64,000 bases of DNA from NCBI GenBank assembly GCA_964476665.1, contig CAYZBO010000003.1, forward strand, positions 887-64,886, in the 5' to 3' direction. Origin of the DNA: an uncultured Chryseobacterium sp. (lineage in GTDB: Bacteria > Bacteroidota > Bacteroidia > Flavobacteriales_F > PHOS-HE28). Every line of letters starts with the position of its first letter. The stretch's first letter is position 1. The position numbers and the translations under genes were made by a program. Positions 819 to 51,738 of this stretch are shown here, piece after piece. Below the pieces are notes generated by a model. That model was not told the origin of the DNA and ran no database searches. It worked only from the letters and a program-made list of their open reading frames with translations.

Positions 819-957
819 CGTGGGAAGAAGAATTACTTCTTAGGGAGGGTGGGGTGACGTCGTTCTGGCTAAGCTTTCGGGCGGATTTTACAAACGCTAA
901 ACTGTCTGCTGTGACCAAAGGTAGCAGATAAGCAAAAACCTTGCGCCCGACTAAAAC

Positions 958-1505: not shown

Positions 1506-1527
1506 TTTTCAATCATGACGAAGAAAT

Positions 1528-1625
1528 ACTCAGCAAGCCCTATATGGTTTATTTCCGCTTCATGCGGACCCATGGAGTGTGTGTTATTTAACTATTGGGG
1601 AGGGTAGAACCACACTGGCTCCATT
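1528..1625. repeat. copy 2 of ~95-bp conserved element upstream of minus-strand low-GC ORF
   Basis: actcagcaagccctatatggtttatttccgcttcatgcggacccatggagtgtgtgttatt... aligns with 417-530 in the same orientation. The same hairpin (ccgc ttcat gcgg) is conserved. Confidence 0.6.
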
Positions 1626-29736: not shown

Positions 29737-29741
29737 TCGGG

Positions 29742-31091: not shown

Positions 31092-31103
31092 TACCGCATC
31101 GCC

Positions 31104-31607
31104 ATGGAACGCGCCAAGAACAACACACCGCATCTGCACCTCGCCGGTGGTCAACTGCTGGAAGCCCGGCGGTCAGGCCTGCTGCACATGCAGGGATCGG
31201 CGCACAGCCTCGAGCCGGTGCGCGAACTGGATGGTGTGCGCTACATCAACGACAGCCGTGCAACATTCCTCGATGCCTCACTGGCATCCATTGCCGAGGT
31301 GCAGGAGCCCTTGGTGTGGATCGCTGGGGCCTGGAGCGATGAGCTCACCGAAGGGCTCACCCAGGAACTGCTCGGCGACCGTCTGCGTGCCGTGGTGCTC
31401 TTCGGCACCGGTCATGACCGACACGCCTTCAGGGACGGCGGCCGTGTGTTCGTGGCCGATGACGTGCGCATGGCTGCGTTCCTGGCCCGCGAGATCGCCC
31501 AGGCGGGCGAAGTGGTGCTCTTCAGCCCTGCCTGCCCGAGCGGCAATGGCTTCGCCAACTACGAGGAGCGTGGGGTCGAATTCAAACGTGCGGTGAACGA
31601 CCTCTGA
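31104..31607 (+). CDS. standalone Mur-ligase C-terminal-domain protein, paralogous to the MurD C-terminus (possible duplicated remnant)
   Basis: The 167-aa ORF aligns with the last ~140 aa of the adjacent MurD: INDSRAT / INDSKAT, PLVWIAGA / PVIWVAGG, EVVLFSPACPSGNGFANYEERGVEFKRAV / DVVLLSPACASFDLFVNYEERGRRFKAAV. It has no ATP-binding or central domain. Confidence 0.6.
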   Translation: MERAKNNTPHLHLAGGQLLEARRSGLLHMQGSAHSLEPVRELDGVRYINDSRATFLDASLASIAEVQEPLVWIAGAWSDELTEGLTQELLGDRLRAVVLFGTGHDRHAFRDGGRVFVADDVRMAAFLAREIAQAGEVVLFSPACPSGNGFANYEERGVEFKRAVNDL

Positions 31608-31615
31608 GCAACACC

Positions 31616-33908: not shown

Positions 33909-33911
33909 CAC

Positions 33912-35291: not shown

Positions 35292-36091
35292 GCAAGTGGA
35301 AGCGATACATCCGACCGTCCGGGATGCTGCTCGGCCTGCTGGCCATTGTGCTGGCGCTTGGATTCGTGGAACGCAACGCCGACCGAACACCCCTGCACGA
35401 CCTGCGTGTGAGGGTGAGCGGTGCGGAGGGTGTGCGGTTCATCGACGAGGCCAGCGTTCGTCGCGAAGTGCTCGAGCAGGGCATTGCCGTGATGGGCACC
35501 ACCCTGGGCGAGGTGGATGAGACGCGCATCGAGGAACGGCTGCGCAGCATTCCATGTGTGGCCAGGGCCGAAGCCTACCACACCATGGATGGAGTGCTGC
35601 ATGTGAGCGTGGTCCAGCGCGATCCCATCGTGCGTGTGATCAACAGTGACGGGACAGGTTTCTACATTGACAAGGAGGGGTGGACCATGCCCACCGAACT
35701 GGCCCATCCCGCCCGTGTGCTGGTGGTCACAGGCGCGCTGAACGAACCAGGTGCCCGTGACGGCGTCATCGACATCCTGGGTAGCGACAGCCTGCGGTCC
35801 CGGTTCCTGTCAGATGACATCCATCGCATCGCCACGTTCATTCAGCGCGACCCGTTCTGGGATGCACTCGTCGACCAGTTGGTGGTGCGCGCCGATGGAC
35901 AGTTCGAACTGGTCCCCAAGGTGGGCGGCCAACGCATCCTCATCGGCGATGGCAGCAGCCTTGAACAGCGCTTCGCCAAGCTCCGGTTGTTCTACGCCAA
36001 AGGCATGCCCATGACCGACTGGCGCCGCTATGACCGCATCGACCTGCGCTTCGCCGACCAGGTCGTATGCACCGAACGAAAAATGCCCTAA
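35288..36091 (+). CDS. ftsQ: cell division protein FtsQ/DivIB-like
   Basis: Single N-terminal TM (LLGLLAIVLALGFV) followed by POTRA-like and beta domains. ATGA overlap with the murC stop. Position before ftsA. Confidence 0.7.
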   Translation: MSKWKRYIRPSGMLLGLLAIVLALGFVERNADRTPLHDLRVRVSGAEGVRFIDEASVRREVLEQGIAVMGTTLGEVDETRIEERLRSIPCVARAEAYHTMDGVLHVSVVQRDPIVRVINSDGTGFYIDKEGWTMPTELAHPARVLVVTGALNEPGARDGVIDILGSDSLRSRFLSDDIHRIATFIQRDPFWDALVDQLVVRADGQFELVPKVGGQRILIGDGSSLEQRFAKLRLFYAKGMPMTDWRRYDRIDLRFADQVVCTERKMP

Positions 36092-36105
36092 CCCCCCCAC
36101 AGACC

Positions 36106-37410
36106 ATGGACCAACACCAAGACATCGTGGCCGGCCTTGACATTGGCACGACCAAGATCGCCTGCATCGTCGGGCGCAAGAACGAACAAGGCAAGATCGA
36201 GATACTCGGAATGGGCAAGTCGCGCAGCGACGGTGTCAGCCGGGGCGTGGTCGCCAACATCCAGAAGACCGTGGAAAGCATCGTCGCCGCGGTGAAGATG
36301 GCAGAGGACAGTGCCGGTGTGGAGATCGGTACCGTGAACGTGGGCATCGCCGGCCAGCACATCCGCAGCATGCAGCACCGCGGCATGAAGATGCGCGAAA
36401 GCCTTGAGGAGGAGATCGCACAGAACGACATCGATCAGCTCATTGAGGAGACCTACCGGTTGGTGATGCCGCCCGGTGAGGAGATCATCCATGTGCTGCC
36501 CCAGGAGTACATCATCGACAACGAGCAGGGCATCCGTGATCCCATCGGAATGAGCGGTATCCGCATGGAGGCCAACTTCCACATCATCAGCGGCCAGGTG
36601 ACCGCGGCCCGTAACATCAACAAGTGCGTGCATCGTGCGGGGCTCAATGTCACCGAGCTGATCCTGGAGCCGCTCGCCAGTGCGGATGCCGTGCTGAGCC
36701 AGGAGGAGAAGGAGGCAGGTGTGGTGCTGGTGGACATCGGTGGTGGCACCACGGACATCGCCATTTTCTTCGACAACATCATCCGACACACCGCTGTGAT
36801 CCCCTTCGGCGGCAATGTGGTCACCGAAGACATCCGCCAGGGCTGTGGTATCATGCGTGAGCAGGCGGAGCAGCTCAAGACCAAGTTCGGCAGCGCGCTC
36901 GCTTCGGAGAACAAGGACAACGAGGTGGTGTGCATTCCCGGTCTGCGCGGTCGCGACCCCAAGGAGATCAGCCTGCGAACACTGGCGCAGATCATCCAAA
37001 GCCGCATGGAGGAGATCCTTGAGCATGTGCACTTCGAGATCAAGAATTCCGGCATGGAAAAGCAATTGATCGCGGGCATCGTGCTCACCGGTGGTGGAGC
37101 CCAGCTCAAGCACCTGAAGCACCTCGTGGAGCTGATGACCGGCATGAGCACGCGCATCGGTTATCCCAATGAGCACATTGCCAAGAGCGCTGTGGAGGAC
37201 GTTACCAGCCCGCTCCATGCCACCGGCGTTGGCCTGGTGATGAAGGGATTCGACTACCTGGAGCGCCACCGCAGCCGAACTTCCGTGGAATCCCGCGCCA
37301 ACGCCGCCGCCCGCACTCCTGTCAAGGGCCACTCCAAGGGCCTGCTCGGAGGACTGTTGGACAGCGTGATGAACGGCGCAAGCAACCTGCTCAAGGAGGA
37401 CGAGATCTGA
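36106..37410 (+). CDS. ftsA: cell division protein FtsA
   Basis: Actin-fold motifs (GLDIGTTKIACIVG; ...LVDIGGGTTDIAIF). Start MDQHQDIV at 36106. Confidence 0.9.
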   Translation: MDQHQDIVAGLDIGTTKIACIVGRKNEQGKIEILGMGKSRSDGVSRGVVANIQKTVESIVAAVKMAEDSAGVEIGTVNVGIAGQHIRSMQHRGMKMRESLEEEIAQNDIDQLIEETYRLVMPPGEEIIHVLPQEYIIDNEQGIRDPIGMSGIRMEANFHIISGQVTAARNINKCVHRAGLNVTELILEPLASADAVLSQEEKEAGVVLVDIGGGTTDIAIFFDNIIRHTAVIPFGGNVVTEDIRQGCGIMREQAEQLKTKFGSALASENKDNEVVCIPGLRGRDPKEISLRTLAQIIQSRMEEILEHVHFEIKNSGMEKQLIAGIVLTGGGAQLKHLKHLVELMTGMSTRIGYPNEHIAKSAVEDVTSPLHATGVGLVMKGFDYLERHRSRTSVESRANAAARTPVKGHSKGLLGGLLDSVMNGASNLLKEDEI

Positions 37411-37455
37411 GCTGTCAGATACACCCCTATCAACAACCGACCAATCCCCCCAACA

Positions 37456-39048
37456 ATGAAATTCGACATCCCCCAGGAGCTCAACTCGATCATCAAGGTG
37501 ATCGGCGTGGGCGGTGGCGGCAGCAACGCCGTCAATCACATGTACGAACAGGGCATTCGTGGCGTGGACTTCATCGTCTGCAACACGGACCGCCAGGCAC
37601 TCGACATCAGCCCGGTGCCCGTGAAGGTGCAGCTCGGTGTGGCCCTCACCGAGGGCCTGGGCGCCGGCGCCGTGCCGGATCGCGGCAGGGAGGCCGTGCA
37701 GGAGAACCTCGATGAACTGCGCCAGTTGCTCAGCACCCGCACGAAGATGGTGTTCATCACCGCAGGCATGGGTGGAGGCACCGGCACGGGTGCTGCGCCG
37801 GTCATCGCCCAGCTTGCCCGCGAAATGGGCATCCTCACGGTGGGCATCGTAACAAGCCCCTTCATGTGGGAGGGCCGCCGTCGCAAGCAGCAGGCCGTGA
37901 GCGGCGTGGAGGAACTGCGAAATGCAGTGGATACCCTGCTCGTGATCAACAACGACCGGCTCCGCGACCTCTTCGGCAACCTCTCTGTCGACAACGCCTT
38001 CGAACATGCCGACAATGTGCTCACCACTGCGGCACGCGGCATCGCCGAGATCATCACCAAGACCGGCAAGGTGAACGTCGACTTCGAGGATGTGAAGACC
38101 GTCATGACCCGCAGTGGAAATGCCATCATGGGCATGGCCGAAGCCGAAGGTGAGGACCGCGCCATGCGTGCGGCCCAGGAGGCGCTCGACTCACCCCTGC
38201 TGAACGATAACAACATCGCCGGAGCCAAGTTCGTGCTGCTCAACATCACTCATGGTACGCGCGAGATCCTCATGGACGAGATCGGCGAGATCACCGATCA
38301 CATCCAGGATGCAGCCGGAAGTGGTGCGGATGTGATCTGGGGCTATGGCAAGGATGAGAGCCTTGGCGACAAGGTGCGCATCACCGTCATCGCCACCGGA
38401 TTTGAGACCAGTGCCGTCACCGGTGCCATCGTGCGCGCTTCCGAAGCCCGCACCGTGATCCCCTTGGACGCCGACCGGCCCACCATGATCACCCAACCCA
38501 TCGTGAACCCGGTCGCCATGGCTGCACCTGCGGCTCCGGTGATGCCGCCGGTACCACCTGCTTTCGAGGAGCCGTACATCAAGCAGGTGCCCGAAGCGAC
38601 CCAAGAGGAGGAGAGGACCACCCCCGCAGCCCCGCAGGCTACCATCGAGTTCGAGGTCGAGACACGCCAAACGCGAGTTGAACAGCCCGAAGCACCAGTG
38701 GCAGAGGAGAAGATCGTGCACGGGCTGTGGGATGAAATGGAGCCTCGGGCCGATTCCCCAGCGGTGGTTTCCGAGGCCCGCCTGAGCCCGCAGCAGCACC
38801 AGGCCCGCGTGGAGGAGCGGCAGGCCCGCATGCGTGAGATCACCCAGCGTCTCCGTTCTCCCAACGGATTGGCGGACATGGAGCACGTGCCCGCTTACAA
38901 GCGCAAGAACATCCACATCAGCGATGTGCAGCACAGCGCCGATTCCAACGTGAGCCGATACACGCTCAACGAGGAGGTCGACGAACATGGTGAGCGGCGT
39001 GTGGAGATCAAGCGCAACAACCCCTTCCTGCACGACAACGTGGACTGA
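37456..39048 (+). CDS. ftsZ: cell division GTPase FtsZ (long C-terminal linker)
   Basis: Tubulin signature GGGTGTG (FITAGMGGGTGTGAAPV) with a T7 loop. The ~200-aa Pro/Glu/Ala-rich C-terminal extension ends with the conserved C-terminal peptide. Confidence 0.95.
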   Translation: MKFDIPQELNSIIKVIGVGGGGSNAVNHMYEQGIRGVDFIVCNTDRQALDISPVPVKVQLGVALTEGLGAGAVPDRGREAVQENLDELRQLLSTRTKMVFITAGMGGGTGTGAAPVIAQLAREMGILTVGIVTSPFMWEGRRRKQQAVSGVEELRNAVDTLLVINNDRLRDLFGNLSVDNAFEHADNVLTTAARGIAEIITKTGKVNVDFEDVKTVMTRSGNAIMGMAEAEGEDRAMRAAQEALDSPLLNDNNIAGAKFVLLNITHGTREILMDEIGEITDHIQDAAGSGADVIWGYGKDESLGDKVRITVIATGFETSAVTGAIVRASEARTVIPLDADRPTMITQPIVNPVAMAAPAAPVMPPVPPAFEEPYIKQVPEATQEEERTTPAAPQATIEFEVETRQTRVEQPEAPVAEEKIVHGLWDEMEPRADSPAVVSEARLSPQQHQARVEERQARMREITQRLRSPNGLADMEHVPAYKRKNIHISDVQHSADSNVSRYTLNEEVDEHGERRVEIKRNNPFLHDNVD

Positions 39049-39653: not shown

Positions 39654-40937
39654 ATGCTGCGTTCCCTGTCCCTCCTCGTGTTGTTGCTTCCCGGCCTGCT
39701 GTGGGCTCAACCTGAATGCGATGTGACCCTGGTGGTGACCCCGGTCAGCTGCGCTGGTGAGGCCGATGGGGCCATTTCCGTGATCACTGGCTCGGGTGGG
39801 CCGTTCCTGTACTCCCTTAATGGCAGCTTTCCCCCGGTCAATGTGGGCACCTGGGCCGACCTCGAGGCAGGGGCCTACTCCGTGGTCGTGACCGACACTG
39901 CACAGGCCTCGGAATGCCTTTCGATCATCGACACGCTCATCTTCGAACCGTCCATCTCCATCCTCGGAAATGCCATCTATTGTCCTTCCGACCCGCCTGT
40001 GCTGTCGGTGATCCCGTTCGCCGGGTTCCAAGGCCTGTACTACGCATGGTCCACAGGAGATACAGCCCAGGTGTTATCCCTGCCGCCAGGCTCCGCCGGC
40101 ACCTTCACCGTCAACTCCATTGATGCCAATGGTTGCGAACTGGATGCCGAGGTGGAGGTGGAGGAGCTCCCCAGCCCAACGGCCGTGATGGGTATACCCG
40201 ATACGGCCTGCCAGAACGTACCCGTACAGATCCTCACGGTAGCGACCACCGGTGATTCCATCGTCTGGCGTTGGCAGACCGCCGGCTACAGCAACGCGTT
40301 CAACGACCTGATCAGCTTCACTCAGAGCGGTTACCAACCGATCAGCATCCAGGCCTTTGATACCGCGGATGGGTGCGGAGGATTGCCTGTGCTCGACAGC
40401 ATCTACATCGAAGCCCAGGTGCCCGCGATCTTCTCCGCCACCCAGATCCCCTGCACGACCGAACTGGAGATCCTCCTCGGAAGCGTTGCCGATTCGTGCG
40501 CATTCTTCATCAACGACAGCCTGTATGTGAACGACTGCAGCGGATTCATCCGCTATGATATCGAGCGGTACGACTTCCACACCTTCACCCTCTACGCCAC
40601 GCAGGCCAATGGCTGCAACGACACGCTGGAAGTGATCGTCGATGTGCGTACCGAACCGACCCTTTTCCTGGCCAATGCGTTCACCCCCGACGGTGATGGC
40701 ATCAATGAGTTCTGGCCTGTCAGGGTGGACATCCCGGCATTGGGCTATGAAGTGGTGATCTACGATCGGTGGGGACGCCAGGTCTGGGTCAGTAATGATC
40801 CCCTGGCACAGTGGGACGGCACCCTGAACGGCGACCCCGTGCCCATTGGTGTGTATGCATACACCATGCGACATCGGGACCCCTGTCAGGCGACCGATGA
40901 GATCACCACCACCGGTCACGTGACAGTGATCCGATAG
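39654..40937 (+). CDS. T9SS type-B sorting domain-containing protein (gliding-motility-associated C-terminal domain)
   Basis: Signal peptide MLRSLSLLVLLLPGLLWAQ. The C-terminus carries the hallmark ...FTPDGDGINEFWPV...YDRWGRQVW... of the type-B (CHU_C / TIGR04131-like) CTD. Confidence 0.7.
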   Translation: MLRSLSLLVLLLPGLLWAQPECDVTLVVTPVSCAGEADGAISVITGSGGPFLYSLNGSFPPVNVGTWADLEAGAYSVVVTDTAQASECLSIIDTLIFEPSISILGNAIYCPSDPPVLSVIPFAGFQGLYYAWSTGDTAQVLSLPPGSAGTFTVNSIDANGCELDAEVEVEELPSPTAVMGIPDTACQNVPVQILTVATTGDSIVWRWQTAGYSNAFNDLISFTQSGYQPISIQAFDTADGCGGLPVLDSIYIEAQVPAIFSATQIPCTTELEILLGSVADSCAFFINDSLYVNDCSGFIRYDIERYDFHTFTLYATQANGCNDTLEVIVDVRTEPTLFLANAFTPDGDGINEFWPVRVDIPALGYEVVIYDRWGRQVWVSNDPLAQWDGTLNGDPVPIGVYAYTMRHRDPCQATDEITTTGHVTVIR

Positions 40938-40959: not shown

Positions 40960-43155
40960 ATGGGCAAGGACCTTCACATACAACGCAGCTTTCCCGTGGA
41001 GGGAATGACCTGTGCCAGCTGTGTGCTCGGTGTGGAGCAGGCATTGGCCACTGTACCGGGTGTCGCCCGGGTGCGGGTGAACCTTGCCGACCATAGTGCC
41101 ACGGTGGTGCTCGATGACCCTGCAGTGGAGAACGGCCAACTGCGACAAGCCGTGCGCAAGGCCGGTTACGACCTGGTCATCACCGATGCCATGGACCTCA
41201 TGGCGGCCCTGGAGAAGGCGCAGGAGGCACGGATGCGCGATCTGCGGCTGCGGTTCATTGTCGCTGCGGCATTGACCCTGCCGCTCGTGGTAGTTGCCAT
41301 GTTCCTGCCGCACGGCCCGATCACGCGCTGGGCCCAGTTGGTCCTTGCCGCTCCGGTCATCCTGGGTACCGGCTTCCCCTTCTTCCGCAATGCGTGGCGG
41401 CAGGCCCGGCATGGGCAGGCCAACATGGACAGCCTCGTGGCCCTGAGCTCAAGCGCAGCCTTCCTCTACAGCCTATACCAGCTCCTCGGCTCGACCGATG
41501 GGCATGGCCACCTCCATTTCGAGTCGGCCGCCGTGGTGATCACCTTCGTCTGGCTGGGACGGTACCTCGAGGGGCGTGCCAAGACCAGCGCCGGAGGTGC
41601 CATCCGGAAGCTCATGGGCATGAGGCCCGATCGGGTGCTGCGGATCGGCCCGGACGGGCGTGTGCGGGAAGTGCCCCTGACCGATGTGGTGCCCGGTGAC
41701 GAAGTACAGGTGCGAGCGGGTGAGCGTGTGGCGGTGGATGGTACCGTGCTGGATGGTGCTGCGGCCGTGGATGAATCGATGTTCACGGGCGAGCCGATAC
41801 CCGTGGAGCGCCTGCCTGGCATGCGGGTATTGGCCGGATCCATGGTGCAGCAGGGTGGACTTCGGATACGGACGGCCCAGGTGGGCGCGGGTACCTACCT
41901 GTCGCGTGTGGCCAGGGCGGTTCAGGAAGCACAGGGCAGCAAGGCTCCGGTGCAGCTGCTCGTGGATCGCGTGGCCGCGCGCTTCGTGCCCGCCGTGCTC
42001 GCCATCGCATTGCTTGCCGCCGCCGCTTGGTGGCTGCTGGGAGGGCCGACCGGCGCAGAGCGCGGGCTGCAGGCGTTCATCACCGTCCTCATCATTGCCT
42101 GCCCATGCGCGTTGGGGCTCGCCACGCCCACCGCGATCATGGCCGGTATCGGCAAAGGTGCGGAACAGGGTATCCTGATCAGGGGGGCTGACAGCCTTGA
42201 GCGCGCACATCGGGTGAATGCAGTAGTGCTCGATAAGACCGGGACGCTCACTGTCGGCCGCCCACGCGTGGTGGAGCGATGGAGCGTGCTCTCCGATCGT
42301 GAGCTGGCTATCATGGCCGCATTGGAGCAGCGCAGCACGCATCCATTGGCGGTCGCTCTGGTGGAGGCGCTCCCCACAACGGATGGGTCATTCTTGCTGG
42401 AACGTGTCAGTGAGGTTCCTGGCGAAGGCATGCACGCGCTCTGCGAAGGACGCTCGTGGACCATCGGTAACAGACGTGCATTGGAATCCGCTGGTATCCG
42501 CATCGAGCGGGAGCGGAGCATGCTGGAGCGCACCTGGCAGGAGGCCGGCCGCAGTACGGTCTGGGTGGCGGTGGACGGGCAGGTCCGCGGACTCTTCGCG
42601 CTGGAGGATGTCGTTCGCGGCTCGGCACGGGGCGCGATCGCAGCCATGGAGCAGGCCGGGCTCACCGTCTACATGCAGACCGGTGACGGGCAGCGGGTGG
42701 CCCGCAGCGTGGCTTCCGCAGTGGGCATCGCACAGCTCCGGGCGGAGGTCTCTCCCAAGGACAAGGCCGCCTTCGTCCGCGGATTGCAGGCCAAGGGTGA
42801 TGTGGTGGCGATGGTGGGGGATGGGGTGAACGATGCCGAGGCGCTCGCTGTGGCGGATGTGAGTTTCGCCATGGGCCAGGGAAGTGACGTGGCCATGGGC
42901 ATAGCGCACATCACGGTCCTCGGCGGCGATCTCGATGCGCTGCCCAAGGCGATCATCCTCTCCCGTCGCACCATGGCGACGATCCGACAGAACCTGTTCT
43001 GGGCCTTCGTCTACAATGTGGTCAGCATCCCGGTGGCTGCCGGTGTGCTGCAGCCGGTGCTGGGCTTCACACTGGACCCCGTATGGGCCGGGATGGCCAT
43101 GGCCTTCAGCAGCGTCAGCGTGGTGCTCAACAGCCTGCGCCTCCGCATGGGTTGA
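40960..43155 (+). CDS. copA: heavy-metal (Cu+) translocating P1B-type ATPase
   Basis: N-terminal HMA domain GMTCASCV, CPC transmembrane motif (IIACPCALGLA), DKTGT phosphorylation site and GDGVND hinge. Confidence 0.9.
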   Translation: MGKDLHIQRSFPVEGMTCASCVLGVEQALATVPGVARVRVNLADHSATVVLDDPAVENGQLRQAVRKAGYDLVITDAMDLMAALEKAQEARMRDLRLRFIVAAALTLPLVVVAMFLPHGPITRWAQLVLAAPVILGTGFPFFRNAWRQARHGQANMDSLVALSSSAAFLYSLYQLLGSTDGHGHLHFESAAVVITFVWLGRYLEGRAKTSAGGAIRKLMGMRPDRVLRIGPDGRVREVPLTDVVPGDEVQVRAGERVAVDGTVLDGAAAVDESMFTGEPIPVERLPGMRVLAGSMVQQGGLRIRTAQVGAGTYLSRVARAVQEAQGSKAPVQLLVDRVAARFVPAVLAIALLAAAAWWLLGGPTGAERGLQAFITVLIIACPCALGLATPTAIMAGIGKGAEQGILIRGADSLERAHRVNAVVLDKTGTLTVGRPRVVERWSVLSDRELAIMAALEQRSTHPLAVALVEALPTTDGSFLLERVSEVPGEGMHALCEGRSWTIGNRRALESAGIRIERERSMLERTWQEAGRSTVWVAVDGQVRGLFALEDVVRGSARGAIAAMEQAGLTVYMQTGDGQRVARSVASAVGIAQLRAEVSPKDKAAFVRGLQAKGDVVAMVGDGVNDAEALAVADVSFAMGQGSDVAMGIAHITVLGGDLDALPKAIILSRRTMATIRQNLFWAFVYNVVSIPVAAGVLQPVLGFTLDPVWAGMAMAFSSVSVVLNSLRLRMG

Positions 43156-43157
43156 CC

Positions 43158-44252
43158 CTACTCGCAGGCAGGCCCCAGGCTTTGGATCCAATCCGCCAGC
43201 AGCGCCGCACCCTGCTCGTCCACGATGCTCCGCCCGATCAAGGGCATTCGTATGGCCTCCTCATTGGTGGTGAGCCGGTGGTACATCGCCGAACGCCCCA
43301 GGTTGCCACGCGCCACCAGGTGTGAATAAGGCTCGATCGGCTCCTCCGGAACAACGCAGACCCCAAGGTTCACCGGGTCCTCCGTGCGCTCGTATGCCAG
43401 GCGGATGGCCCGGTAGGAACAACTGCGCCCCTCGTCGTGGCAGTGCGCGCAATTGATGTCCAGATACGAGCGTACACGCTGTTCCAGGTTCTCGGTGGTG
43501 TCGTCCCAGCGCACCAGCGTCAGAAAGTCCTTCGGATAGCCCGGCTGCAGGAAGCCATGGGCCACCCACTGCGCCAACTGATTGTTCGGTCCCGTACCAT
43601 ACCACAGCGGTCCGTTCAAGTTCTGCGGCTCCGGCCCGATCGGTGCGTTCGCACCATACTTCCGATGGCAGCTTTGGCATTCCACCAGGGAGGGGATGCG
43701 GTACTGGATGGAACGTGGATCACCTTCCTCATCGGTCCAGCTCACAGGTATCGTGCTGCCTGTAAGGTCCAGGTATGCCTCGCTCTGTTCGCTGTTCCAT
43801 ACATAGTTCGCGATCTCCCACTGTCCGGCACGTTTGAAGAGCATCCGCGTTTCGATGATCCGCCGACCACCTCCGGCAAGTGCTTTGTCGTAGTAGAAGT
43901 TCTTCAGCAACACGGCCCCGTTCGGAAAGTCGAGGACCTCGTGCGCACCATTGAAACGTGCCTTCCTGCCAGACGGCATCCACACAAAGCGCGCCTTGTG
44001 CGCCTCATCGGTGAACAACGGGGTGATGGGCGCGAAAGGCAGCACCTCTGCCACCGGTTCCATGGCGGCCAGCTTGCCCGCAAAGAACCCATATTCGGAG
44101 AGCGTGTTGTAGGGCACCTCATCCAGGTCGAAGTTGACCTTTGTGCCACCGACAGGGATCGGAGCAACGCCTTCATCCAAACGCTCCTTGCGACATGCAA
44201 TGAGCGTGGCGAGCAGGATCAGCAGGGTGAGGAAGTGACGGGAAGGTGACAT
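43158..44252 (-). CDS. lipoprotein with two conserved CXXCH heme-c binding motifs (putative di-heme c-type cytochrome, family unassigned), cassette copy 1
   Basis: Lipobox LIAC after the signal peptide. CQSCH at ~aa 193 and CAHCH at ~aa 277. ~55% identical to the paralog at 46379-47512, with both motifs conserved. Confidence 0.6.
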   Translation of the reverse strand: MSPSRHFLTLLILLATLIACRKERLDEGVAPIPVGGTKVNFDLDEVPYNTLSEYGFFAGKLAAMEPVAEVLPFAPITPLFTDEAHKARFVWMPSGRKARFNGAHEVLDFPNGAVLLKNFYYDKALAGGGRRIIETRMLFKRAGQWEIANYVWNSEQSEAYLDLTGSTIPVSWTDEEGDPRSIQYRIPSLVECQSCHRKYGANAPIGPEPQNLNGPLWYGTGPNNQLAQWVAHGFLQPGYPKDFLTLVRWDDTTENLEQRVRSYLDINCAHCHDEGRSCSYRAIRLAYERTEDPVNLGVCVVPEEPIEPYSHLVARGNLGRSAMYHRLTTNEEAIRMPLIGRSIVDEQGAALLADWIQSLGPACE

Positions 44253-44360
44253 GGTCGCTCTGATACGGGTGGTGAATACGTGGCCATCGGCGCTGGTCCC
44301 CCAAAGTAACGAAGGTCCGGCCCTGAGGACCGGACCTTCGTCATGGACATGATCGGAACC

Positions 44361-46346
44361 TTATTCCTTGGTGAAGCTGCGCTGGGTGGTGCCGTTGGGG
44401 GTGAACACCTGCAGGACGTAAGCGCCGGGTGTCAGTGCACGCACGTCAAGCCGCTCATTGAGCACGCTGCCCCGCAGCACCAGCCGACCTGTTGCATCAA
44501 GCACACGGACCGGCACCTGACCATTGCCCAGTCCGGAAATGGTGAGAACATCCTGCGCCGGCACCGGGAACAGGCGCAGCTGCGACTCGCTGGCGTCAGA
44601 GAGACCGGTGGATACACCTTCCACGATCACCTCCGTCGTGTTCACTGCGATGCCTTCCAGCACGTCCACGATGCCCGAGGGCCAGCGGACCGTTACGGCC
44701 GTGATCTCGGTCTCCTCGCCCAGACCGAAGTGGGCGGTCATGGTGCTCATGTATCGGAAGCCATCACCGCTGCGCACTTCGCGCGTGAACGTGCCGCTGG
44801 GCGTTTCAACCGTAATGCGCGCGCCGATGCCATTGCTGTTGCTCAACACCCCCACCGTGGCGATCTTCAGCCAGTTGTTGTCGTTGCCCGCGTTCCTGCG
44901 GATGGTGCCCGAGGTGTACACGTCGAGGAACCCATCGTTGTTCAGGTCGCCGATGGGGCCGTTGCCGGGGGAGGTGCCGTTGGGAACGAAGGTCATGTCA
45001 CCCATGTTCATCAGCAGGCCACCGCCACCAAGGATGTCGAGGTAACCGTTGTTGTCGAAGTCATGGGTGGTCCATTCGATGCTCTGACCGGTGAACAGGT
45101 CGATGCCTGAACCCGCCGTGATGTTCGTGAAGGTGCCGTCGCCATTGTTCTCAAGCAGCTTGTGGTAGCCGCTGCTGCTGGCGCCGATGAGCACGTCCAT
45201 ATCCCCATCGTTGTCAAAGTCGCCCCAGGCACTGCTCCAGCTCTGGTGATTGTCCGCCATGCCCAGTTCGGGAGCAACGTTGGTGAAGGTGCCATCCCCA
45301 TTGTTGCGCATCAACAGGTCCACCGGGTCGCAGCCACACTTGGCCACGAACAGGTCGATATCGCCGTCGTTGTCATGATCGGTCCAGATGGAACCATAGT
45401 TGCCACAGGTGAGACCGAGCAGTCCCTGGTTGAAGGTGAGGTTGCCGTTGCCGTCATTAAAGAAGGCGACATTGGCATCCACATCGTGGCATACGAAGGC
45501 GTCCAGGTTGCCATCATTGTTGATGTCCACCATGTTGGTCCGCTGGCTGAAGATGTAGTTCGGGAAGGACACCTCTGTGAAGCCCGTGCCCGTGTTGTTG
45601 GCCATCATGAAGGTGGAGCCGCTGCCACCGCCATAGAGCAGGTCGTTGTACCCATTGCCATCGATGTCGCCGGCAGCAATGCTCCAGGAAGCCGTGTGGT
45701 CAGCAGGGGTGGTGATGATGTTCACGGATTGGAACGTGCCGTTGGCCTGCTGGTACAGGATGTTCACATTGCTGGTGCTCGTGCCCACGATGTCGTCCAG
45801 CTGGTCATTGTTCATGTCCACCACGCAGTAACCGCTGCCGCTCACACCCTGGGTAACGTTGGTGAAGGAGATGATCGACGGCGGAGGGGGCGGAGGCGGG
45901 GGGGCAGGCTGAACGAACGCCAACTCGAAACTGAAGCCTGCGGTGGTCCAGCGGTTGTCAAAACCGATGGTGTAGGTCTGTCCGGCGGTCACCGGAAAGG
46001 TCACCAGCGAGGTCAGGTTCGATCCGCTGTCATCATCCCCGGCCAGGCAGCTGAGGCTGCCGCAGGTGCCCGTGTAAACGTGCACCCGGGTATCCACCCA
46101 ACTGGTGCCTGGAACATCCGTGTTGAGGCGCATCGTGGTGTCCACCGTCGCGGTGTAGGTGAACCATTCCGCCATGCTCCCCGGGTTGCCATTGGTGGCG
46201 CAGGTCACGGGCAGTGGCTCGGTACCATTCACCGCATCCACCACATGCACCCCGATGCCAACGTTCAGCGCCGTGGCGCACGTGTTCTGGCCGTAAGTAT
46301 GGTACGAGAGCGATAAGAGCGTGAAGGAGAGCAGGGTTGAACGCAT
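44361..46346 (-). CDS. FG-GAP/VCBS-repeat beta-propeller protein with ASPIC/UnbV domain and T9SS C-terminal sorting domain, cassette copy 1
   Basis: Signal peptide. N-terminal Cys-pair beta-sandwich-like domain followed by a poly-Pro linker. Multiple DxDxDGxxD / FG-GAP-like repeats (DINNDGNLD, DHDNDGDID, DFDNDGDMD...). UnbV_ASPIC signature ARITVETPSGTFTREVRSGDGFRYMSTMTAHFGLG. C-terminal T9SS CTD (...LRLFPVPAQD...YVLQVFTPNG...). Confidence 0.8.
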   Translation of the reverse strand: MRSTLLSFTLLSLSYHTYGQNTCATALNVGIGVHVVDAVNGTEPLPVTCATNGNPGSMAEWFTYTATVDTTMRLNTDVPGTSWVDTRVHVYTGTCGSLSCLAGDDDSGSNLTSLVTFPVTAGQTYTIGFDNRWTTAGFSFELAFVQPAPPPPPPPPSIISFTNVTQGVSGSGYCVVDMNNDQLDDIVGTSTSNVNILYQQANGTFQSVNIITTPADHTASWSIAAGDIDGNGYNDLLYGGGSGSTFMMANNTGTGFTEVSFPNYIFSQRTNMVDINNDGNLDAFVCHDVDANVAFFNDGNGNLTFNQGLLGLTCGNYGSIWTDHDNDGDIDLFVAKCGCDPVDLLMRNNGDGTFTNVAPELGMADNHQSWSSAWGDFDNDGDMDVLIGASSSGYHKLLENNGDGTFTNITAGSGIDLFTGQSIEWTTHDFDNNGYLDILGGGGLLMNMGDMTFVPNGTSPGNGPIGDLNNDGFLDVYTSGTIRRNAGNDNNWLKIATVGVLSNSNGIGARITVETPSGTFTREVRSGDGFRYMSTMTAHFGLGEETEITAVTVRWPSGIVDVLEGIAVNTTEVIVEGVSTGLSDASESQLRLFPVPAQDVLTISGLGNGQVPVRVLDATGRLVLRGSVLNERLDVRALTPGAYVLQVFTPNGTTQRSFTKE

Positions 46347-46378: not shown

Positions 46379-47512
46379 CTAGGGACAGGTGCCTGGGAGG
46401 CTGGCGATCCATTCGCGGATCATTTCCGCTCCTTCGTCATGGGCAATGGTCCGCCCCAACAGGGGCATGCGGACCGTCTCATCCGTGGAGGTGAGCCGGA
46501 AGTGCATCATGGACCGTCCCGGATTGCCCCGGGCCACGATCTCCGTGTATTCCGGAGCGATGGGGTCATCTGGCGGAACGCACACACCAAGGTTCACAAG
46601 GTCCTCGCTCTCGTTGTAGGCGAAGCGCATGGGCCTGTAGTTGCAATGGCGCTCGTCCGCATGGCAGTGGGCGCAGTTCATGTCGAGATAACTACGTACC
46701 CGCAGGTCCAGTGGTTGGGTCGCGTCGTCCCAGCGCACGGTCGTCATGATGTTCGACGGGTACCCGCTCTGCAGGTAACCCACCTCCACCCATTTCTCCA
46801 GCTGGTTCCGCACACCGTCCTGGTAGGCCAGGTCCGCGTTCAGGTTCTGGGGCTTCGGACCGATGGGGATGGGGTCGAAGTTGACCTTGTGGCACGTCTG
46901 GCACTCGGCCGCACTGGGTATCCTGTACAGGATATTGCGCTGCTCACCGTTCTGGTCCACCCACGATACAGGCGTGTTGCTGCCGTTCAGGTCCAGGTAG
47001 GCTTCCGTTTGCTCCGCGTTCCACACATAATCAGCGAAGTACCAGCTGCCGTTCCGCTTGAAGAGCAGTCGGGTCTCAAGGATCCGCCGCTCATCGTTGG
47101 GCAGCACATGGTCATAGTAGAAGGTCTTGATGAGCACCGCTCCATCCGGAAAGTCCAGTACCTGATGATCGCCGGCATAGGTGGCCTTCACCCCGCTCGG
47201 CATCCACACGAAGCGTTTTTTCTTCGCATAGTCCGAAAAGAGCGATGTGATGGGCTCATACGGCAGCACTCCGGCATTCGGCGCCTGCTCCTTCAACGCA
47301 CCGGTGAAGAAGCGGTAGGCGGACAAGGTCTGGTAGGGTGCCAGGGTCGCATCAAAGTAAATGCCATCCCCTGCCGGCGGCGTGGGCAGCACAGGTGCAG
47401 GCGTCTCGGGTTCCGGCTCACGCTCCTTCCTGCAGCCCGGCGCAAGCAGAAGGCCGGTCAGCACCAAGGGTAGAAGGCGCAGCTTGCCAACGGGGTGCAC
47501 TCCAGATCGCAT
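46379..47512 (-). CDS. lipoprotein with two conserved CXXCH heme-c binding motifs, cassette copy 2
   Basis: Start MRSGVHPVGKLRLLPLVLTGLLLAPGC (the track ORF is extended to 47620). Carries CQTCH and CAHCH, and is collinear with 43158-44252. Confidence 0.6.
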   Translation of the reverse strand: MRSGVHPVGKLRLLPLVLTGLLLAPGCRKEREPEPETPAPVLPTPPAGDGIYFDATLAPYQTLSAYRFFTGALKEQAPNAGVLPYEPITSLFSDYAKKKRFVWMPSGVKATYAGDHQVLDFPDGAVLIKTFYYDHVLPNDERRILETRLLFKRNGSWYFADYVWNAEQTEAYLDLNGSNTPVSWVDQNGEQRNILYRIPSAAECQTCHKVNFDPIPIGPKPQNLNADLAYQDGVRNQLEKWVEVGYLQSGYPSNIMTTVRWDDATQPLDLRVRSYLDMNCAHCHADERHCNYRPMRFAYNESEDLVNLGVCVPPDDPIAPEYTEIVARGNPGRSMMHFRLTSTDETVRMPLLGRTIAHDEGAEMIREWIASLPGTCP

Positions 47513-47561: not shown

Positions 47562-49553
47562 TTACTCCCTGGTGAAGGGCAGGCGCTGAACTCCGGTGGC
47601 ATCGTGCATCTCCAGCACATAGAAGCCGGGCTGCACCTGTGAAAGGTCCAGCCGGCCTCCTTGCAGTCGGGTGTTCATCACCAAACGGCCTGAGGCTCCG
47701 AAGACCCGCACCAGGGCGTTGCCGGTGTTCGTCCCCTGCACCATCAGCTCATTCCCAGCCGGCACGGGGAACAGCCGGAGTACGGCCATTTCCTGCTCTG
47801 CCACGTTGGTGCCCACCTCCTCCACGAGGGTGATCGTACCGTTCACGGCTACGTCGTTCAGCACGTTCACGATGCCGGAAGGCCAGCGTACATGCACCTG
47901 CTCCACCACCTCGTCCATGCCCAGGCCGAAGTGCGCCGTGATGGTGCTCATGTATCGGAAGCCGTCGCCACTGCGCACATCCCGGATCTGCTGGCCCGAT
48001 GCCGTGGTGATGGTGATCCGCGCTCCGATACCCTCGCTGTTGCTTACCGTACCCACCGTGCGGATGCGCAGCCAGTTGTTGTCGTTGCCATTGTTCATGC
48101 GTGCGGTGGAACTACTGATGACGTCAAGGAAGCCATCGTTGTTGAGGTCGCCCACGGCACCCACTTCGAAGCCGACAGGGTTCTCCTCGAAGATCATGTT
48201 CCCCATGTTCACCATGATGGTGCCGCCGCCGCCCATCACATCCAGCAAGCCGTCATTGTTGAAGTCGTGGGTGACATGCTCGACACTGGTGCCCGTGAAC
48301 ACATCCCAGCCCGATCCCGCCGTGATGTCCGTGAAGGTGGTGCCATCGTTCCGCATCAGCTTGTGGCCGCCGGCCGTAAAGGAGCTGGCACCCACCAGGG
48401 CGTCCATGTCACCGTCATTGTCAAAGTCGCCCCATGCGGCGCTCCAGGTCTGGACCGGATCGGCAAGGTTATACAGGGCCGCCACCTCCGTGTAAGTGCC
48501 GTCACCGTTGTTGCGGTGCAGCTGGTTGGTGCTCACCACCGGGTTCCCTCCGCGGCATTTGGCGATGAACAAGTCCACGTCACCATCGTTGTCGAAGTCC
48601 GTCCAGATGGAGCCATAGTTCCCACCTCCTTGCGTGTCACCCAGACCTCCCTGGTTCCAGCCGAACTGCCCGTTGCCATCGTTCAGCAGGTACACGTTCG
48701 GTGCCACATCGTGGCATACGAAGGCGTCCAGCCGACCATCGTTGTTGATGTCCACCATGTTGGTCCGCTGGCAGAAGACGTATTGTGCATAGCTGCTGTC
48801 GCGGAACGAAGTGCCGTCCTCATTGGCGAACATGACCGTCACACCGCTGCCCCCTCCATAGACGAGGTCCCGCTGGCCGTTCCCATCCAGGTCACCCGCG
48901 CACAGGCTCCAGCTCGGTGAGTTCGCCACGGTATCGTTCGGCAGGTTCACCGTATTGAACCCACCGCCGGGCAGTTGATAGTTGATGTTGATGTTGGAGG
49001 TCGTCACCGAGACCACATCGTCAAGGCCGTCGTTGTTCATGTCCACAGCGGCCCTGACGGTCCCTGCTGTGGCCAGTGATTGGTTGGTGAAGCTGATCAA
49101 TTCAAGGAACGGCGGCTCCTCCGTGACGGAGAACGTGAATCCGTTGGCATCCCAACGATCATCGAAGGCGATGTAATAGGTGGTGCCGCCGATCATGTTC
49201 ACGTGAAGCCAGCTCAGGTAGCCGCTTCCGGAATCATCGTCACCGCCAATGCAGGTGAGGGCGCCGCAGCTGCCGCTGTAGACGTGCACACGGGTATCCC
49301 GGCCCGTGTTCTCCACCAGGTCCGTGGTGATCACCAGGCTGATGTCGGTGGATGGCGTGTACGTGTACCACTCGCCATTGGAGGCGAGATTGCCTCCTGT
49401 TGCGCAGACCGGCAGGGGGATCTCGGTGCCGTCCACGGTGTCGACCACATGGATGCCGGCCGTGATGGCGAGGGCAGTGGCACAGTCGTTCTGCGCAAAG
49501 GCTGCGGAACCGAATAGGAACAAAGGGAGCAAAGCGGCGTACGTGTGTTTCAT
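47562..49553 (-). CDS. FG-GAP/VCBS-repeat beta-propeller protein with ASPIC/UnbV domain and T9SS C-terminal sorting domain, cassette copy 2
   Basis: Start MKHTYAALLPLFLFGSAAFAQ (ATG at 49553). Same architecture as 44361-46346 (ARITITTASGQQIRDVRSGDGFRYMSTITAHFGLG), with a T9SS CTD at the C-terminus. Confidence 0.8.
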   Translation of the reverse strand: MKHTYAALLPLFLFGSAAFAQNDCATALAITAGIHVVDTVDGTEIPLPVCATGGNLASNGEWYTYTPSTDISLVITTDLVENTGRDTRVHVYSGSCGALTCIGGDDDSGSGYLSWLHVNMIGGTTYYIAFDDRWDANGFTFSVTEEPPFLELISFTNQSLATAGTVRAAVDMNNDGLDDVVSVTTSNININYQLPGGGFNTVNLPNDTVANSPSWSLCAGDLDGNGQRDLVYGGGSGVTVMFANEDGTSFRDSSYAQYVFCQRTNMVDINNDGRLDAFVCHDVAPNVYLLNDGNGQFGWNQGGLGDTQGGGNYGSIWTDFDNDGDVDLFIAKCRGGNPVVSTNQLHRNNGDGTYTEVAALYNLADPVQTWSAAWGDFDNDGDMDALVGASSFTAGGHKLMRNDGTTFTDITAGSGWDVFTGTSVEHVTHDFNNDGLLDVMGGGGTIMVNMGNMIFEENPVGFEVGAVGDLNNDGFLDVISSSTARMNNGNDNNWLRIRTVGTVSNSEGIGARITITTASGQQIRDVRSGDGFRYMSTITAHFGLGMDEVVEQVHVRWPSGIVNVLNDVAVNGTITLVEEVGTNVAEQEMAVLRLFPVPAGNELMVQGTNTGNALVRVFGASGRLVMNTRLQGGRLDLSQVQPGFYVLEMHDATGVQRLPFTRE

Positions 49554-49702: not shown

Positions 49703-50401
49703 TCAGCGATCGACAACGAGCTTGAACCCCACCCCATGGACGTTCACGATCTGCACGTTGGGGTCCGGCTTCAGGTACTTCCGCAGGCGACTGATGAACA
49801 CATCCAGGCTGCGACCCAGGAAGTACGTGTCATCACCCCAGACCATGTTCAACACAAGTTCCCGCGGCAGCACCTGCTCGCGGTGCAGGCACAGCAGGCG
49901 CAGCACGTCAGCCTCCTTGCGGGTGAGCTTGCGCTCTTCGGTGGGGTGGCTGAGCACCAGGTTGCGATGGTCGAAGGTGAACTCCCCCAGGTCGAAGCGT
50001 TCACGCCCCTTCTCGGGTTCGCGGCTATGTGTGCGGCGCAGGATCGCTTCGATCCGCAGGATCAACTCCTCGTGACTGAACGGTTTTGTGAGGTAATCGT
50101 CACCACCTGCCTTGAAGCCCGCGATTCGATCGTCCACCTGGCTTTTTGCTGTGAGGAACACGATCGGCACCGCACGGTCCACAAGACGGATGTCCTCGGC
50201 GAGGCTGAATCCATCCTTTAGCGGAAGCATCACGTCCAGCACACATAGGTCGTGTGTCATTTCGTTGAACCTTCGCAGCCCTTCCTTGCCATCCCTGCAC
50301 AGGGTCACCTGGTATCCCTTGCGCTTGAGGGCGTCCTGAACGACGAAGCCGAGGTTCTGGTCGTCCTCCACGAGCAGGATGCGTACGGGGTCGGTGTTCA
50401 T
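49703..50401 (-). CDS. two-component response regulator, OmpR/PhoB family (winged-helix DNA-binding)
   Basis: Receiver domain with phospho-accepting Asp (ILLVEDD...LCVLDVMLP) and a C-terminal winged helix. The start overlaps the HK stop (ATGA at 50398-50401). Confidence 0.9.
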   Translation of the reverse strand: MNTDPVRILLVEDDQNLGFVVQDALKRKGYQVTLCRDGKEGLRRFNEMTHDLCVLDVMLPLKDGFSLAEDIRLVDRAVPIVFLTAKSQVDDRIAGFKAGGDDYLTKPFSHEELILRIEAILRRTHSREPEKGRERFDLGEFTFDHRNLVLSHPTEERKLTRKEADVLRLLCLHREQVLPRELVLNMVWGDDTYFLGRSLDVFISRLRKYLKPDPNVQIVNVHGVGFKLVVDR

Positions 50402-51738
50402 GATCGGTACTTGTTCTTGCCCTGGGGTAGACAAAGTGTGAAGGTGCTGCCCCTGCCAGGCTCGCTGCGGACCTCCACCCGGCCGCCATGGGCCGAAGTG
50501 ATCTGTTGCACGTAATGAAGTCCAAGGCCGAAGCCCTTTACATCGTGTCGGTTGCCGGTATGCACCCGATAGAAGCGTTCAAAGATGTGCTTCAGGTCCT
50601 CCTTGTCGATGCCGATGCCCTTGTCGCTCACGGCCACATGAAGTCCACCCTCGGTGTTGAAGGTCCGGATGGTGATGGTGCCTCCCTCCGGCCCGTACTT
50701 CAGCGCGTTGTCCACCAGGTTCGTCAATGCATTGGTCAGGTGCACGCGATCGCCGACAACGATCTCATTGGTGGCATCCAGCTGCAATGCCAGTGAGCTG
50801 TTGCGCTCACGAAGTGGAAGGAGGAAGTGGTCGCGCACCTCCTGCACGACGGCATGCATCTGCACCGGTTCCCGGGCCAGTTCCAGTTCGCCTTTGTCCA
50901 GCGTGGATAATTGGAGGACGCGCTCAACCTGGACACGCAAGCGCTCGTTCTCCGTACGGATGATGTGTGCGTAAGCCTGCAGCCGGTCGGGCTCATGCAC
51001 GATGTCCGGGTCACTGATGACCTCGCTGCTCAACGCGATCGTGCTGATCGGGGTCTTCAGCTCATGGGTCATGTTGCCGATGAAGTCGTTCTTCATTTCG
51101 CTCAGCTTCTTCTGCTGCAGAATGACCCACACACTGTAGGCGAAGAAGCTGAATACGATGAGCGTGACCACGGCGGGGAAGACCCATGTCCAACTGCTCG
51201 CGGCAGGTTCCTCCCATAGGCTGCTTTGCCGTTTGGGGAAATAGACCCCGAAATAGTGCCCGTCCTTGTCGAGCTTCTGCAATTTGGTGTGTGGAACGGT
51301 GTCCGTCCCCGCTGTGTCCAGGCTTACATAATTCCCGTAGACCACGCTGTCCGTGAAACAATCGTAGATGCCGTACTCAAAGTCCTCCAGGATGTTGCGG
51401 CGACTGAACTCCTTGCGCAGCAGGGCTTCCAACAGATAAGGGTGCAGCGTGTCGTTGATCGTGACAGCAAAGTAGTTCGGCCGCTCCTGTTTCACCGCGT
51501 CGTAGAGATCGCTCGGGTCCTTGGTGATGGAGAGGATCTGTTCTGTCACGTCCGTGAGCGCGATCACCACCCGGTCGTTGAACTGCTTCTCCAGCTGCCG
51601 GGCCTGTTCGCGGTTCAGTTCCAGTTGGTCCTTGTGCGTGCGACGAGCCTGCTGCAGCCATAGCAGCTGCGTGATGACAACGCCGAATACGCTCAACGTG
51701 GCCAGCAGCAGCAGGGTTCCGATCGCCTTACGTCCCAT
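50398..51738 (-). CDS. two-component sensor histidine kinase
   Basis: N-terminal TMs, H-box HELKTPISTIALSSE and HATPase_c (GFGLGLHYVQQI). Confidence 0.9.
   Translation of the reverse strand: MGRKAIGTLLLLATLSVFGVVITQLLWLQQARRTHKDQLELNREQARQLEKQFNDRVVIALTDVTEQILSITKDPSDLYDAVKQERPNYFAVTINDTLHPYLLEALLRKEFSRRNILEDFEYGIYDCFTDSVVYGNYVSLDTAGTDTVPHTKLQKLDKDGHYFGVYFPKRQSSLWEEPAASSWTWVFPAVVTLIVFSFFAYSVWVILQQKKLSEMKNDFIGNMTHELKTPISTIALSSEVISDPDIVHEPDRLQAYAHIIRTENERLRVQVERVLQLSTLDKGELELAREPVQMHAVVQEVRDHFLLPLRERNSSLALQLDATNEIVVGDRVHLTNALTNLVDNALKYGPEGGTITIRTFNTEGGLHVAVSDKGIGIDKEDLKHIFERFYRVHTGNRHDVKGFGLGLHYVQQITSAHGGRVEVRSEPGRGSTFTLCLPQGKNKYRS

Follow-up and report, generated by a model that had tools for sequence, protein, structure and literature searches.

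A Flavobacteriales branch of the TIGR03806 di-haem cytochromes paired with secreted FG-GAP/ASPIC propellers: a possible two-protein redox module

Genes and motifs at the locus

The window, which is the whole 64,000-nucleotide stretch of uncultured Chryseobacterium sp. DNA analysed here, carries two paralogous minus-strand genes, cytA and cytB, for predicted c-type cytochrome lipoproteins (Table 1). The encoded proteins are 57% identical across 351 amino acids (E 2e-148). An earlier note on this DNA had reported CQ(S/T)CH and CAHCH in both paralogs; the motifs indeed start at residues 192 and 268 of cytA and at residues 204 and 280 of cytB, and their spacing measures 76 residues rather than the approximately 85 given in the note. 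The blocks FVWMPSG, ETR.LFKR, YRIPS, NLGVCV.P and VARGN.GRS and the cysteine motif RSCSYR/RHCNYR, also listed there, each recur in cytA and cytB. The CXXCH motifs of the two proteins are far beyond chance expectation and, together with the lipoboxes and the retention of the motifs across homologs, they fit the earlier description of the products as probable di-haem c-type cytochrome lipoproteins. The open frame of cytB extends to position 47620; a proper signal peptide and lipobox are obtained with the MRSGV start, and Cys27 is the predicted lipid-anchored residue.

The neighbouring genes fgA and fgB encode secreted FG-GAP/ASPIC beta-propellers. The fgA product matches the Pfam families FG-GAP_3 (8e-35), UnbV_ASPIC (4e-19) and Por_Secre_tail (1.6e-6). 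For the type A sorting domain (TIGR04183/PF18962), the model TIGR04183 scores 30.1 bits on fgA and 29.0 bits on fgB against a cut-off of 23, and the respective signal peptides end in YGQ and AFAQ; by these signals, both propellers are predicted T9SS cargo. The gene order along the minus strand is histidine kinase, response regulator, fgB, cytB, fgA and cytA. Only 32 nt separate the stop of cytB from the start of fgA, which makes the two a canonical cytochrome-then-propeller pair. A strong terminator-like hairpin lies between the cytB–fgA unit and cytA, and cytA itself has no propeller downstream of it in the window. A scan for sigma-70 promoters returned nothing; Bacteroidota promoters are unlike the sigma-70 consensus.

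Table 1. Positions of the genes and motifs of the cytochrome–propeller locus in the window
Feature	Position	Strand	Basis or details
cytA, predicted TIGR03806-like di-haem c-type cytochrome lipoprotein, 364 aa	43158..44252	(-)	ORF; profile; AlphaFold2 (AF2) model
cytA Met336 (RMPL motif), putative sixth ligand of haem 2	43245..43247	(-)	Conservation; profile alignments of relatives
cytA haem motif 2, CAHCH, aa 268-272	43437..43451	(-)	Motif and family alignment
cytA haem motif 1, CQSCH, aa 192-196	43665..43679	(-)	Immediately C-terminal of the N-terminal beta-domain
cytA lipobox LIAC (Cys20), then RKERLDE	44193..44204	(-)	Partial surface-export-like motif
Terminator-like strong hairpin	44303..44343	(-)	Just 3' of the fgA stop; -34.3 kcal/mol, z = -5.0
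fgA, secreted FG-GAP/ASPIC-UnbV (CRTAC1-like) beta-propeller with T9SS C-terminal domain, 661 aa	44361..46346	(-)	
cytB, paralog of cytA, 377 aa, lipobox LAPGC	46379..47512	(-)	ORF; profile; alignment with cytA
cytB haem motif 2, CAHCH, aa 280-284	46661-46675	(-)	
cytB haem motif 1, CQTCH, aa 204-208	46889-46903	(-)	
fgB, second FG-GAP/ASPIC/T9SS propeller, 663 aa from the MKHTY start	47562..49553	(-)	Upstream of cytB
OmpR-type response regulator	49703-50401/50434	(-)	Pfam; directly upstream, same strand
Histidine kinase	50398-51738	(-)	Pfam; directly upstream, same strand

Family assignment, conserved residues and predicted structure

Both cytochromes match the NCBIfam model TIGR03806 ("SO2930 family diheme c-type cytochrome") over positions 3-314 of 314, cytA with an E-value of 3.5e-79 and 266.2 bits and cytB with 5e-89 and 298.6 bits. 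These scores lie slightly lower than the curated cut-off of 313.3 bits. Core members of the family score 349-406 bits on the same model and other Flavobacteriales members score 287-304 bits; by profile similarity, cytA and cytB belong to a Flavobacteriales sub-branch of the TIGR03806/SO2930 superfamily. Near-identical cluster mates of the two proteins are named "hypothetical protein" at NCBI because the sub-branch scores below the TIGR03806 cut-off. The suggestion of a new family in the earlier note gives way to this full-length colinear match, and IMG already names homologs "uncharacterized repeat protein (TIGR03806 family)".

No Pfam family covers the cytochromes in a Pfam profile scan, in which cytA and cytB display only sub-threshold local cytochrome c matches around the CXXCH motifs. 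The note had also proposed kinship to DUF1111, which is not borne out: none of 60 family members matches DUF1111 at E<=1. Its argument against bacterial CCP/MauG-type peroxidases fares better, as CCP_MauG (PF03150) likewise matches 0/60 members at E<=1 and motif 1 is situated at residue 192. A comparison with the PSCyt families, recommended in the same place, yields sub-threshold PSCyt3 matches in 7/60 members (best E 0.033) and no significant match. Cytochrome P460 gives weak matches in 11/60 members (best E 0.0052), and was set aside as unsupported after the inspection of 22 individual members, cytA and cytB included, none of which showed it, and the absence of P460 structures from the Foldseek results.

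The family is very large. A profile search against 1.84 billion cluster representatives retrieves 7,876 clusters at 50% identity with E <= 1e-3, and 2,209 with E <= 1e-30. The Flavobacteriales branch has at least 596 matching stretches in a one-genome-per-species set; the best 80 of these, the species-level loci referred to below, are nearly all from Flavobacteriales, with a few record titles naming other Bacteroidota. We found no functional study of the TIGR03806 family in the literature, which was also searched for SO2930, HNE_0200, the beta-helix pairing and CRTAC1/ASPIC.

The two CXXCH motifs are retained by 120/120 close homologs and by 143/150 representatives of the 50%-identity clusters. 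Of the seven proteins that depart from this, five are fragments and two are near-full-length: P0220 reads CISYH at motif 1, and P0149 has a deletion over motif 2. In a 200-sequence superfamily alignment, every one of the six motif residues is invariant (100%); the sequences had been pre-selected for two CXXCH motifs, which makes this figure non-independent evidence. The same alignment shows conservation of Met336 (99%), Pro337 (100%) and His270 (93%). Cytochrome c profiles align locally in 57/60 family members. In relatives, alignments to the Cytochrome_CBB3 and Cytochrom_C profiles begin at motif 2 and extend as far as the Met or the C-terminus: residues 430-509 of P0176 correspond to positions 6-89 of 90 in a class-I cytochrome profile, and residues 263-336 of P0025 and P0036 to positions 8-61 of 68. 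Since Met336 and Pro337 are conserved and the class-I profiles run from motif 2 to the Met, haem 2 is probably His/Met-ligated, with Met336 as the sixth ligand. The structure models contain no haem, so ligand assignments are read from conservation.

The remaining candidate residues differ in how widely they are shared. Cys278, the cysteine of RSCSYR/RHCNYR, marks the branch: only 19% of the wider family has Cys at this position and the rest has Ala, which makes a core catalytic role unlikely. Cys278, Cys299 and Cys363 can be set aside as family-wide haem ligands or catalytic residues, since Cys occupies these positions in just 19%, 55% and 52% of the family, respectively; Cys299 and Cys363 may form a disulfide. 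His345 is discounted as an essential ligand for a similar reason: cytA and 20% of the family have Asp at that position. The beta-domain contains a set of near-invariant polar residues in the 200-sequence alignment: Asp82, Lys86, Arg88, Lys117, Glu134-Thr135-Arg136, Tyr150 and Trp152. They are constant across clades with differing partner proteins, and this independence of the partner argues for an intrinsic functional site beside haem 1 rather than a partner interface. Their near-invariance also points to specific chemistry over generic electron shuttling.

The AlphaFold2 model of cytA, built from a 60-sequence alignment, has a pLDDT of 89.4 and a pTM of 0.84. Long antiparallel strands occupy residues 71-186, and the C-terminal half is mostly helical or loop-rich; residues 187-364 modelled separately give a pLDDT of 84.5. 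The earlier note had proposed structure prediction as a way of placing the CXXCH sites in cytochrome-c-like folds, yet these confident models match no solved cytochrome fold. The best Foldseek match of the full model in the PDB has an E-value of 0.037 with TM <= 0.13 (Hcp and Ig-like noise), and the model of the di-haem C-terminal part has 0 matches at E <= 10. Nothing significant is found among PDB sequences with the single protein, the 60-sequence profile or the C-terminal profile. The TIGR03806 family is thus without a detectable solved relative, and the term class-I-like for the haem 2 unit derives from weak profile alignments.

Partner proteins and export signals

The pairing of the Flavobacteriales cytochromes with FG-GAP/ASPIC propellers is the new part of the finding. 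Among the best 80 loci, the propeller gene starts between -37 and +69 nt past the cytochrome stop in 65 cases. The propeller is the sole conserved neighbour in these loci, the other neighbours being housekeeping genes common to at most 19 of them, and pairing at operon-like spacing spans genera from Chryseobacterium to Dokdonia. All scanned partners (58/58) possess the FG-GAP and ASPIC domains and the T9SS tail. Five of the 80 loci have no propeller match, including three (L059, L068 and L075) for which several kilobases downstream were read. The nearest solved relatives of the propeller partners are human CRTAC1, integrin alpha-V and the PVL lectin. Invariant residues of the propellers are mostly Asp and Asn of Ca2+ loops, plus two Cys, and their inspection revealed no recognisable redox cofactor site, including the PQQ signature. 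The partner could consequently be purely structural or adhesive.

The two-component pair upstream of fgB possibly regulates the system. The response regulator is matched in L001 and L002, the two closest relatives, with the kinase match absent from both fetched stretches, and the remaining 78 of the 80 loci yielded no such pair. We do not count it as a part of the system, as the regulator is matched only in those two relatives. A convergent gene for a CopA-type ATPase, which would have provided a link to metals, is excluded on the same grounds, being matched only in L002 of the two.

Other parts of the family have different partners. In the family description, TIGR03806 proteins are paired as two genes, or fused, with the parallel beta-helix TIGR03805, and core members bear this out. 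No beta-helix gene adjoins cytA or cytB in the window, and the FG-GAP/ASPIC/T9SS propeller is the partner there. A NosD-like beta-helix gene adjoins the cytochrome in two of three Planctomycete contexts, and the third (P0312) has no nearby partner. The beta-helix partners in the family are NosD-like, one of them pectate-lyase-like. Fusions among the top 150 representatives include TIGR03805 beta-helices in eight proteins, Ig, cadherin or Fn3 N-terminal extensions in three, a PQQ glucose/sorbosone-dehydrogenase (GSDH) joined to the TIGR03806 domain in one (P0260), and a separate N-terminal PSCyt1 domain in another, the distant relative P0222. Permanent fusion to all-beta domains, a known dehydrogenase among them, is the chief reason for seeing the di-haem unit as a redox module of its partner. 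The Ig, cadherin and Fn3 extensions would fit a surface protein.

A lipobox is found in 116/122 branch members, and a lipobox-like Cys in 88/119 Planctomycete members. Downstream of the Cys, the branch has Lys at +3 in 70%, Asp or Glu at +4 in 97% and Asp or Glu at +5 in 44% of members. Other Bacteroidota-type members read CSDDDD, CKDDD, CSDDF or CSKDD from the anchor, and Planctomycete members read C-G-S-R, with no acidic enrichment. The Bacteroidetes lipoprotein export signal has been defined experimentally as C-X-K-(D/E)2-X in Capnocytophaga, SDDDD in Bacteroides and SDDFE in Flavobacterium (PMC5080379), and the motifs of the Bacteroidota members appear to match it. In cytA and cytB, the sequence CRKER is a partial signal with one acidic residue where two are optimal, so that the surface location of these two proteins remains a prediction. 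An export-like motif on the cytochrome and a T9SS-exported partner suggest that the two may meet at the cell surface.

Candidate roles of the cytochrome and its propeller

Membership in the family, conservation of the motifs, gene pairing and the presence of secretion and lipidation signals are established. From these we infer haem ligation, a location at the surface and electron exchange with the partner or alongside it. We give an even chance to the reading that cytA or cytB forms, with a T9SS-secreted propeller, a two-protein extracytoplasmic redox module, probably at the cell surface. In such a module, a beta-rich N-terminal domain of approximately 140 residues would precede two covalent haem sites. 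Haem 2 (CAHCH) would belong to a small, loosely class-I-like unit with Met336 as the sixth ligand and act as an electron relay, and haem 1 (CQ[ST]CH), at the junction with the beta-domain, would be the functional site, either facing the substrate or catalytic. The cytochrome would work with the co-transcribed, Ca2+-binding, seven-bladed FG-GAP/ASPIC propeller after its secretion by the T9SS, and the propeller would bind or process the substrate. That the substrate is a glycan or another extracellular compound is a guess, prompted by the partners found in the family: NosD-like beta-helices, a PQQ sugar dehydrogenase and lectin- or integrin-like propellers. A bolder version, which we regard as doubtful, is a so far unrecognised surface redox machine of Flavobacteriia in which the cytochrome, flipped outward via lipoprotein export, is joined with the T9SS-exported Ca2+-propeller and has a fold with no solved relative; with such a machine, ordinary aerobic Bacteroidota would be able to transfer electrons or carry out oxidations outside the cell, acting for instance on glycans, metals or humic material.

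The cytochrome might instead be a self-sufficient periplasmic redox protein, such as a small-molecule oxidoreductase, a detoxifier or a respiratory carrier, its adjacency to the propeller reflecting co-regulation only. The position of cytA beyond the terminator-like hairpin, with no downstream partner of its own, is compatible with this, as are the five loci with no propeller match, the solitary P0312 among the three Planctomycete homologs and the identity of the invariant beta-domain residues whatever the partner. We nevertheless consider it unlikely, given that the propeller is the only neighbour conserved at operon-like spacing from Chryseobacterium to Dokdonia, and that domains of the partner type are fused to the cytochrome elsewhere in the family.

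A catalytic role directed at the partner itself is less probable still. T9SS cargo must fold in the periplasm prior to export, and a cytochrome acting as a MauG- or MbnH-like maturase could oxidatively modify the propeller or beta-helix there, before the propeller leaves. The tight one-to-one gene pairing would be expected of a maturase and its target, the conserved polar pocket of the beta-domain suggests catalysis over simple electron shuttling, and a lipoprotein and a secreted protein may finish in different compartments. Against this, neither sequence nor profile comparison reveals kinship to CCP/MauG, and the partners represent three unrelated folds, for which a common target residue is hard to envisage. 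Permanent fusions to beta-helices and to a PQQ dehydrogenase are commonly seen in electron-transfer modules and would be out of the ordinary for a maturase with its substrate, and the surface-export-like motif favours a final location beyond the periplasm.

Two further alternatives carry very little weight. The idea that the proteins form a di-haem family not recognised before, with possible kinship to DUF1111, would accord with the missing Pfam coverage, the "hypothetical protein" label of the cluster mates, the sub-cut-off TIGR03806 scores and the lack of a structural relative in the PDB, but is highly improbable in view of the colinear full-length TIGR03806 match at E-values of 3.5e-79 and 5e-89, the existing IMG name and the absence of DUF1111 matches. 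The CXXCH motifs could scarcely be non-haem metal-binding or disulfide sites, a reading that the mismatch of the predicted fold with solved cytochromes would favour, since the His and both Cys are invariant in the two motifs and accompanied by a conserved Met-Pro, each of the two proteins is furnished with a signal for export, nearly all members show local alignment to cytochrome c profiles, and members count as c-type cytochromes both in the family name and in the Shewanella cytochrome lists.

The two-protein redox module can be compared with several known systems. The closest is the TIGR03806 core (chp_HNE_0200; namesake SO_2930 of Shewanella oneidensis), with which cytA and cytB share nearly the whole 314-position model, both CXXCH motifs, Met336-Pro337, the beta-domain residues, a lipoprotein or secretory signal and an arrangement in which a large all-beta partner is encoded next to the cytochrome or fused to it. 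The core, however, is partnered by the TIGR03805 beta-helix and the Flavobacteriales branch by the FG-GAP/ASPIC propeller with its T9SS tail; the beta-helix comes first in Planctomycetes, whereas the cytochrome comes first in the branch, and Cys278 and the Bacteroidota surface-export-like motif set the branch further apart. CCP/MauG proteins (PF03150) also contain two c-type haems per periplasmic polypeptide, possibly one relay and one functional haem, but their first haem lies near the N-terminus, whereas motif 1 of cytA at residue 192 follows the beta-domain, and no CCP/MauG structure in the PDB matches the cytA models in fold. The resemblance to DUF1111 (PF06537) consists in secretion, two CXXCH motifs and the shared lack of an assigned function. 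Fusions of PQQ sugar dehydrogenases to cytochromes offer another parallel, in that P0260 combines a GSDH propeller with the TIGR03806 domain and supports an electron-relay role beside an all-beta catalytic or binding domain; unlike in such fusions, the window encodes the two parts as separate proteins with distinct routes of export, and shows no signature of PQQ or another cofactor in the propeller.

We regard cytA and cytB, on the profile and signal evidence, as a Flavobacteriales variant of a catalogued family that differs from the core in its partner and in a surface-export-like signal. TIGR03806, for all its size, has no Pfam model, solved structure or assigned function. The Flavobacteriales branch offers a tractable entry through cultured carriers, such as Dokdonia pacifica DSM 25597, Chryseobacterium taichungense DSM 17453 and Flavobacterium arsenatis, and through predictable export signals on both proteins, and the conserved pairing and predicted surface location make the large family experimentally approachable. 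Should the cytochrome prove to be surface-exposed, aerobic Bacteroidota would have an unusual example of a c-type cytochrome on the outer face, and the enigmatic bacterial CRTAC1-like propellers would gain a functional context. Otherwise, the result reduces to a correct re-annotation within a known uncharacterised family.

A genetic link between FG-GAP/ASPIC propellers and c-type haem proteins is also seen outside of this family: CRTAC1-type FG-GAP genes sit among haem-c enzyme genes in hydrazine-synthase-like clusters (PMC12758564). The haem proteins of those clusters are, however, homologs of HZS alpha and beta-gamma, unrelated to TIGR03806, and their hosts are Planctomycetota and other non-Bacteroidota taxa. 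In Shewanella, published work lists SO_2930 and SO_2931 among outer-membrane or extracellular cytochromes, and SO2931 has been deleted together with the outer-membrane multihaem cytochromes. The literature regards SO2931, which by its gene number adjoins the namesake SO2930, as a homolog of outer-membrane cytochromes.

Duplication and transcription of the module

Several of the 80 best-matching loci in a one-genome-per-species scan carry cytochrome–propeller–propeller arrays or two cytochrome copies (L014, L036, L045 and L047; L028, L033, L048 and L064). The cytochrome–propeller module is therefore repeatedly duplicated, including in the window, where the duplicated arrangement reads fgB-cytB-fgA-cytA (fg, FG-GAP/ASPIC propeller genes; cyt, di-haem cytochrome lipoprotein genes). 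A very stable hairpin lies directly 3' of the fgA stop codon, 50–90 nt upstream of the cytA start. It resembles a terminator that lacks a clear U-tract, which suggests that cytB-fgA and cytA form separate transcription units.

Features surrounding the cytochrome and propeller genes
Feature	Position	Strand	Details
Two small ORFs of the low-GC islet	958-1221 and 1218-1505	-	
Apparent division and cell-wall (dcw) cluster, to ftsZ (37456-39048)	23152-39048		ORF order and translations
SprB-repeat protein	39654-40937	+	CHU_C (type B) T9SS sorting domain
CopA-type P1B heavy-metal ATPase	40960-43155	+	HMA domain GMTCASC, E1-E2 ATPase
Hairpin	44303-44343	-	-34.3 kcal/mol, z = -5.0

Conserved and variant residues

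In the propeller partners (44361-46346 and 47562-49553), two cysteines, Cys286 (FVCHD) and Cys337 (AKC), are invariant in the alignment bearing on these proteins (A2). The same alignment contains seven Asp/Asn clusters resembling Ca2+ loops, and Gln is likewise invariant where signal peptidase is predicted to cut. A variant haem motif is found in the wider cytochrome family: P0220, a near-full-length cluster representative of 333 aa, reads CISYH at the first CXXCH position, Tyr replacing the second Cys. Haem 1 may be held there by a single thioether or may have been lost, or the change may stem from a sequencing error.

Genomic surroundings

The CopA-type ATPase gene is convergent with cytA, and only 2 nt separate their stop codons. 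A matching ATPase neighbours the cytochrome in a single related locus (L002), so the adjacency is probably coincidental. The SprB-repeat protein carries a CHU_C domain, and thus the window encodes T9SS cargo of type A and of type B less than 10 kb apart. Positions 23152-39048 appear to hold a complete dcw cluster, its gene names being read from ORF order and translations rather than assigned by a tool, and this indicates an ordinary chromosomal setting. The whole 64 kb window yielded neither a tRNA nor an Rfam RNA. At window positions 800-1600, the GC content falls to 35–44%, compared with about 62% elsewhere; this low-GC islet, which may be a horizontally acquired insertion, adjoins a short ORF (618-818) that carries an S4-like motif and appears to be a remnant.
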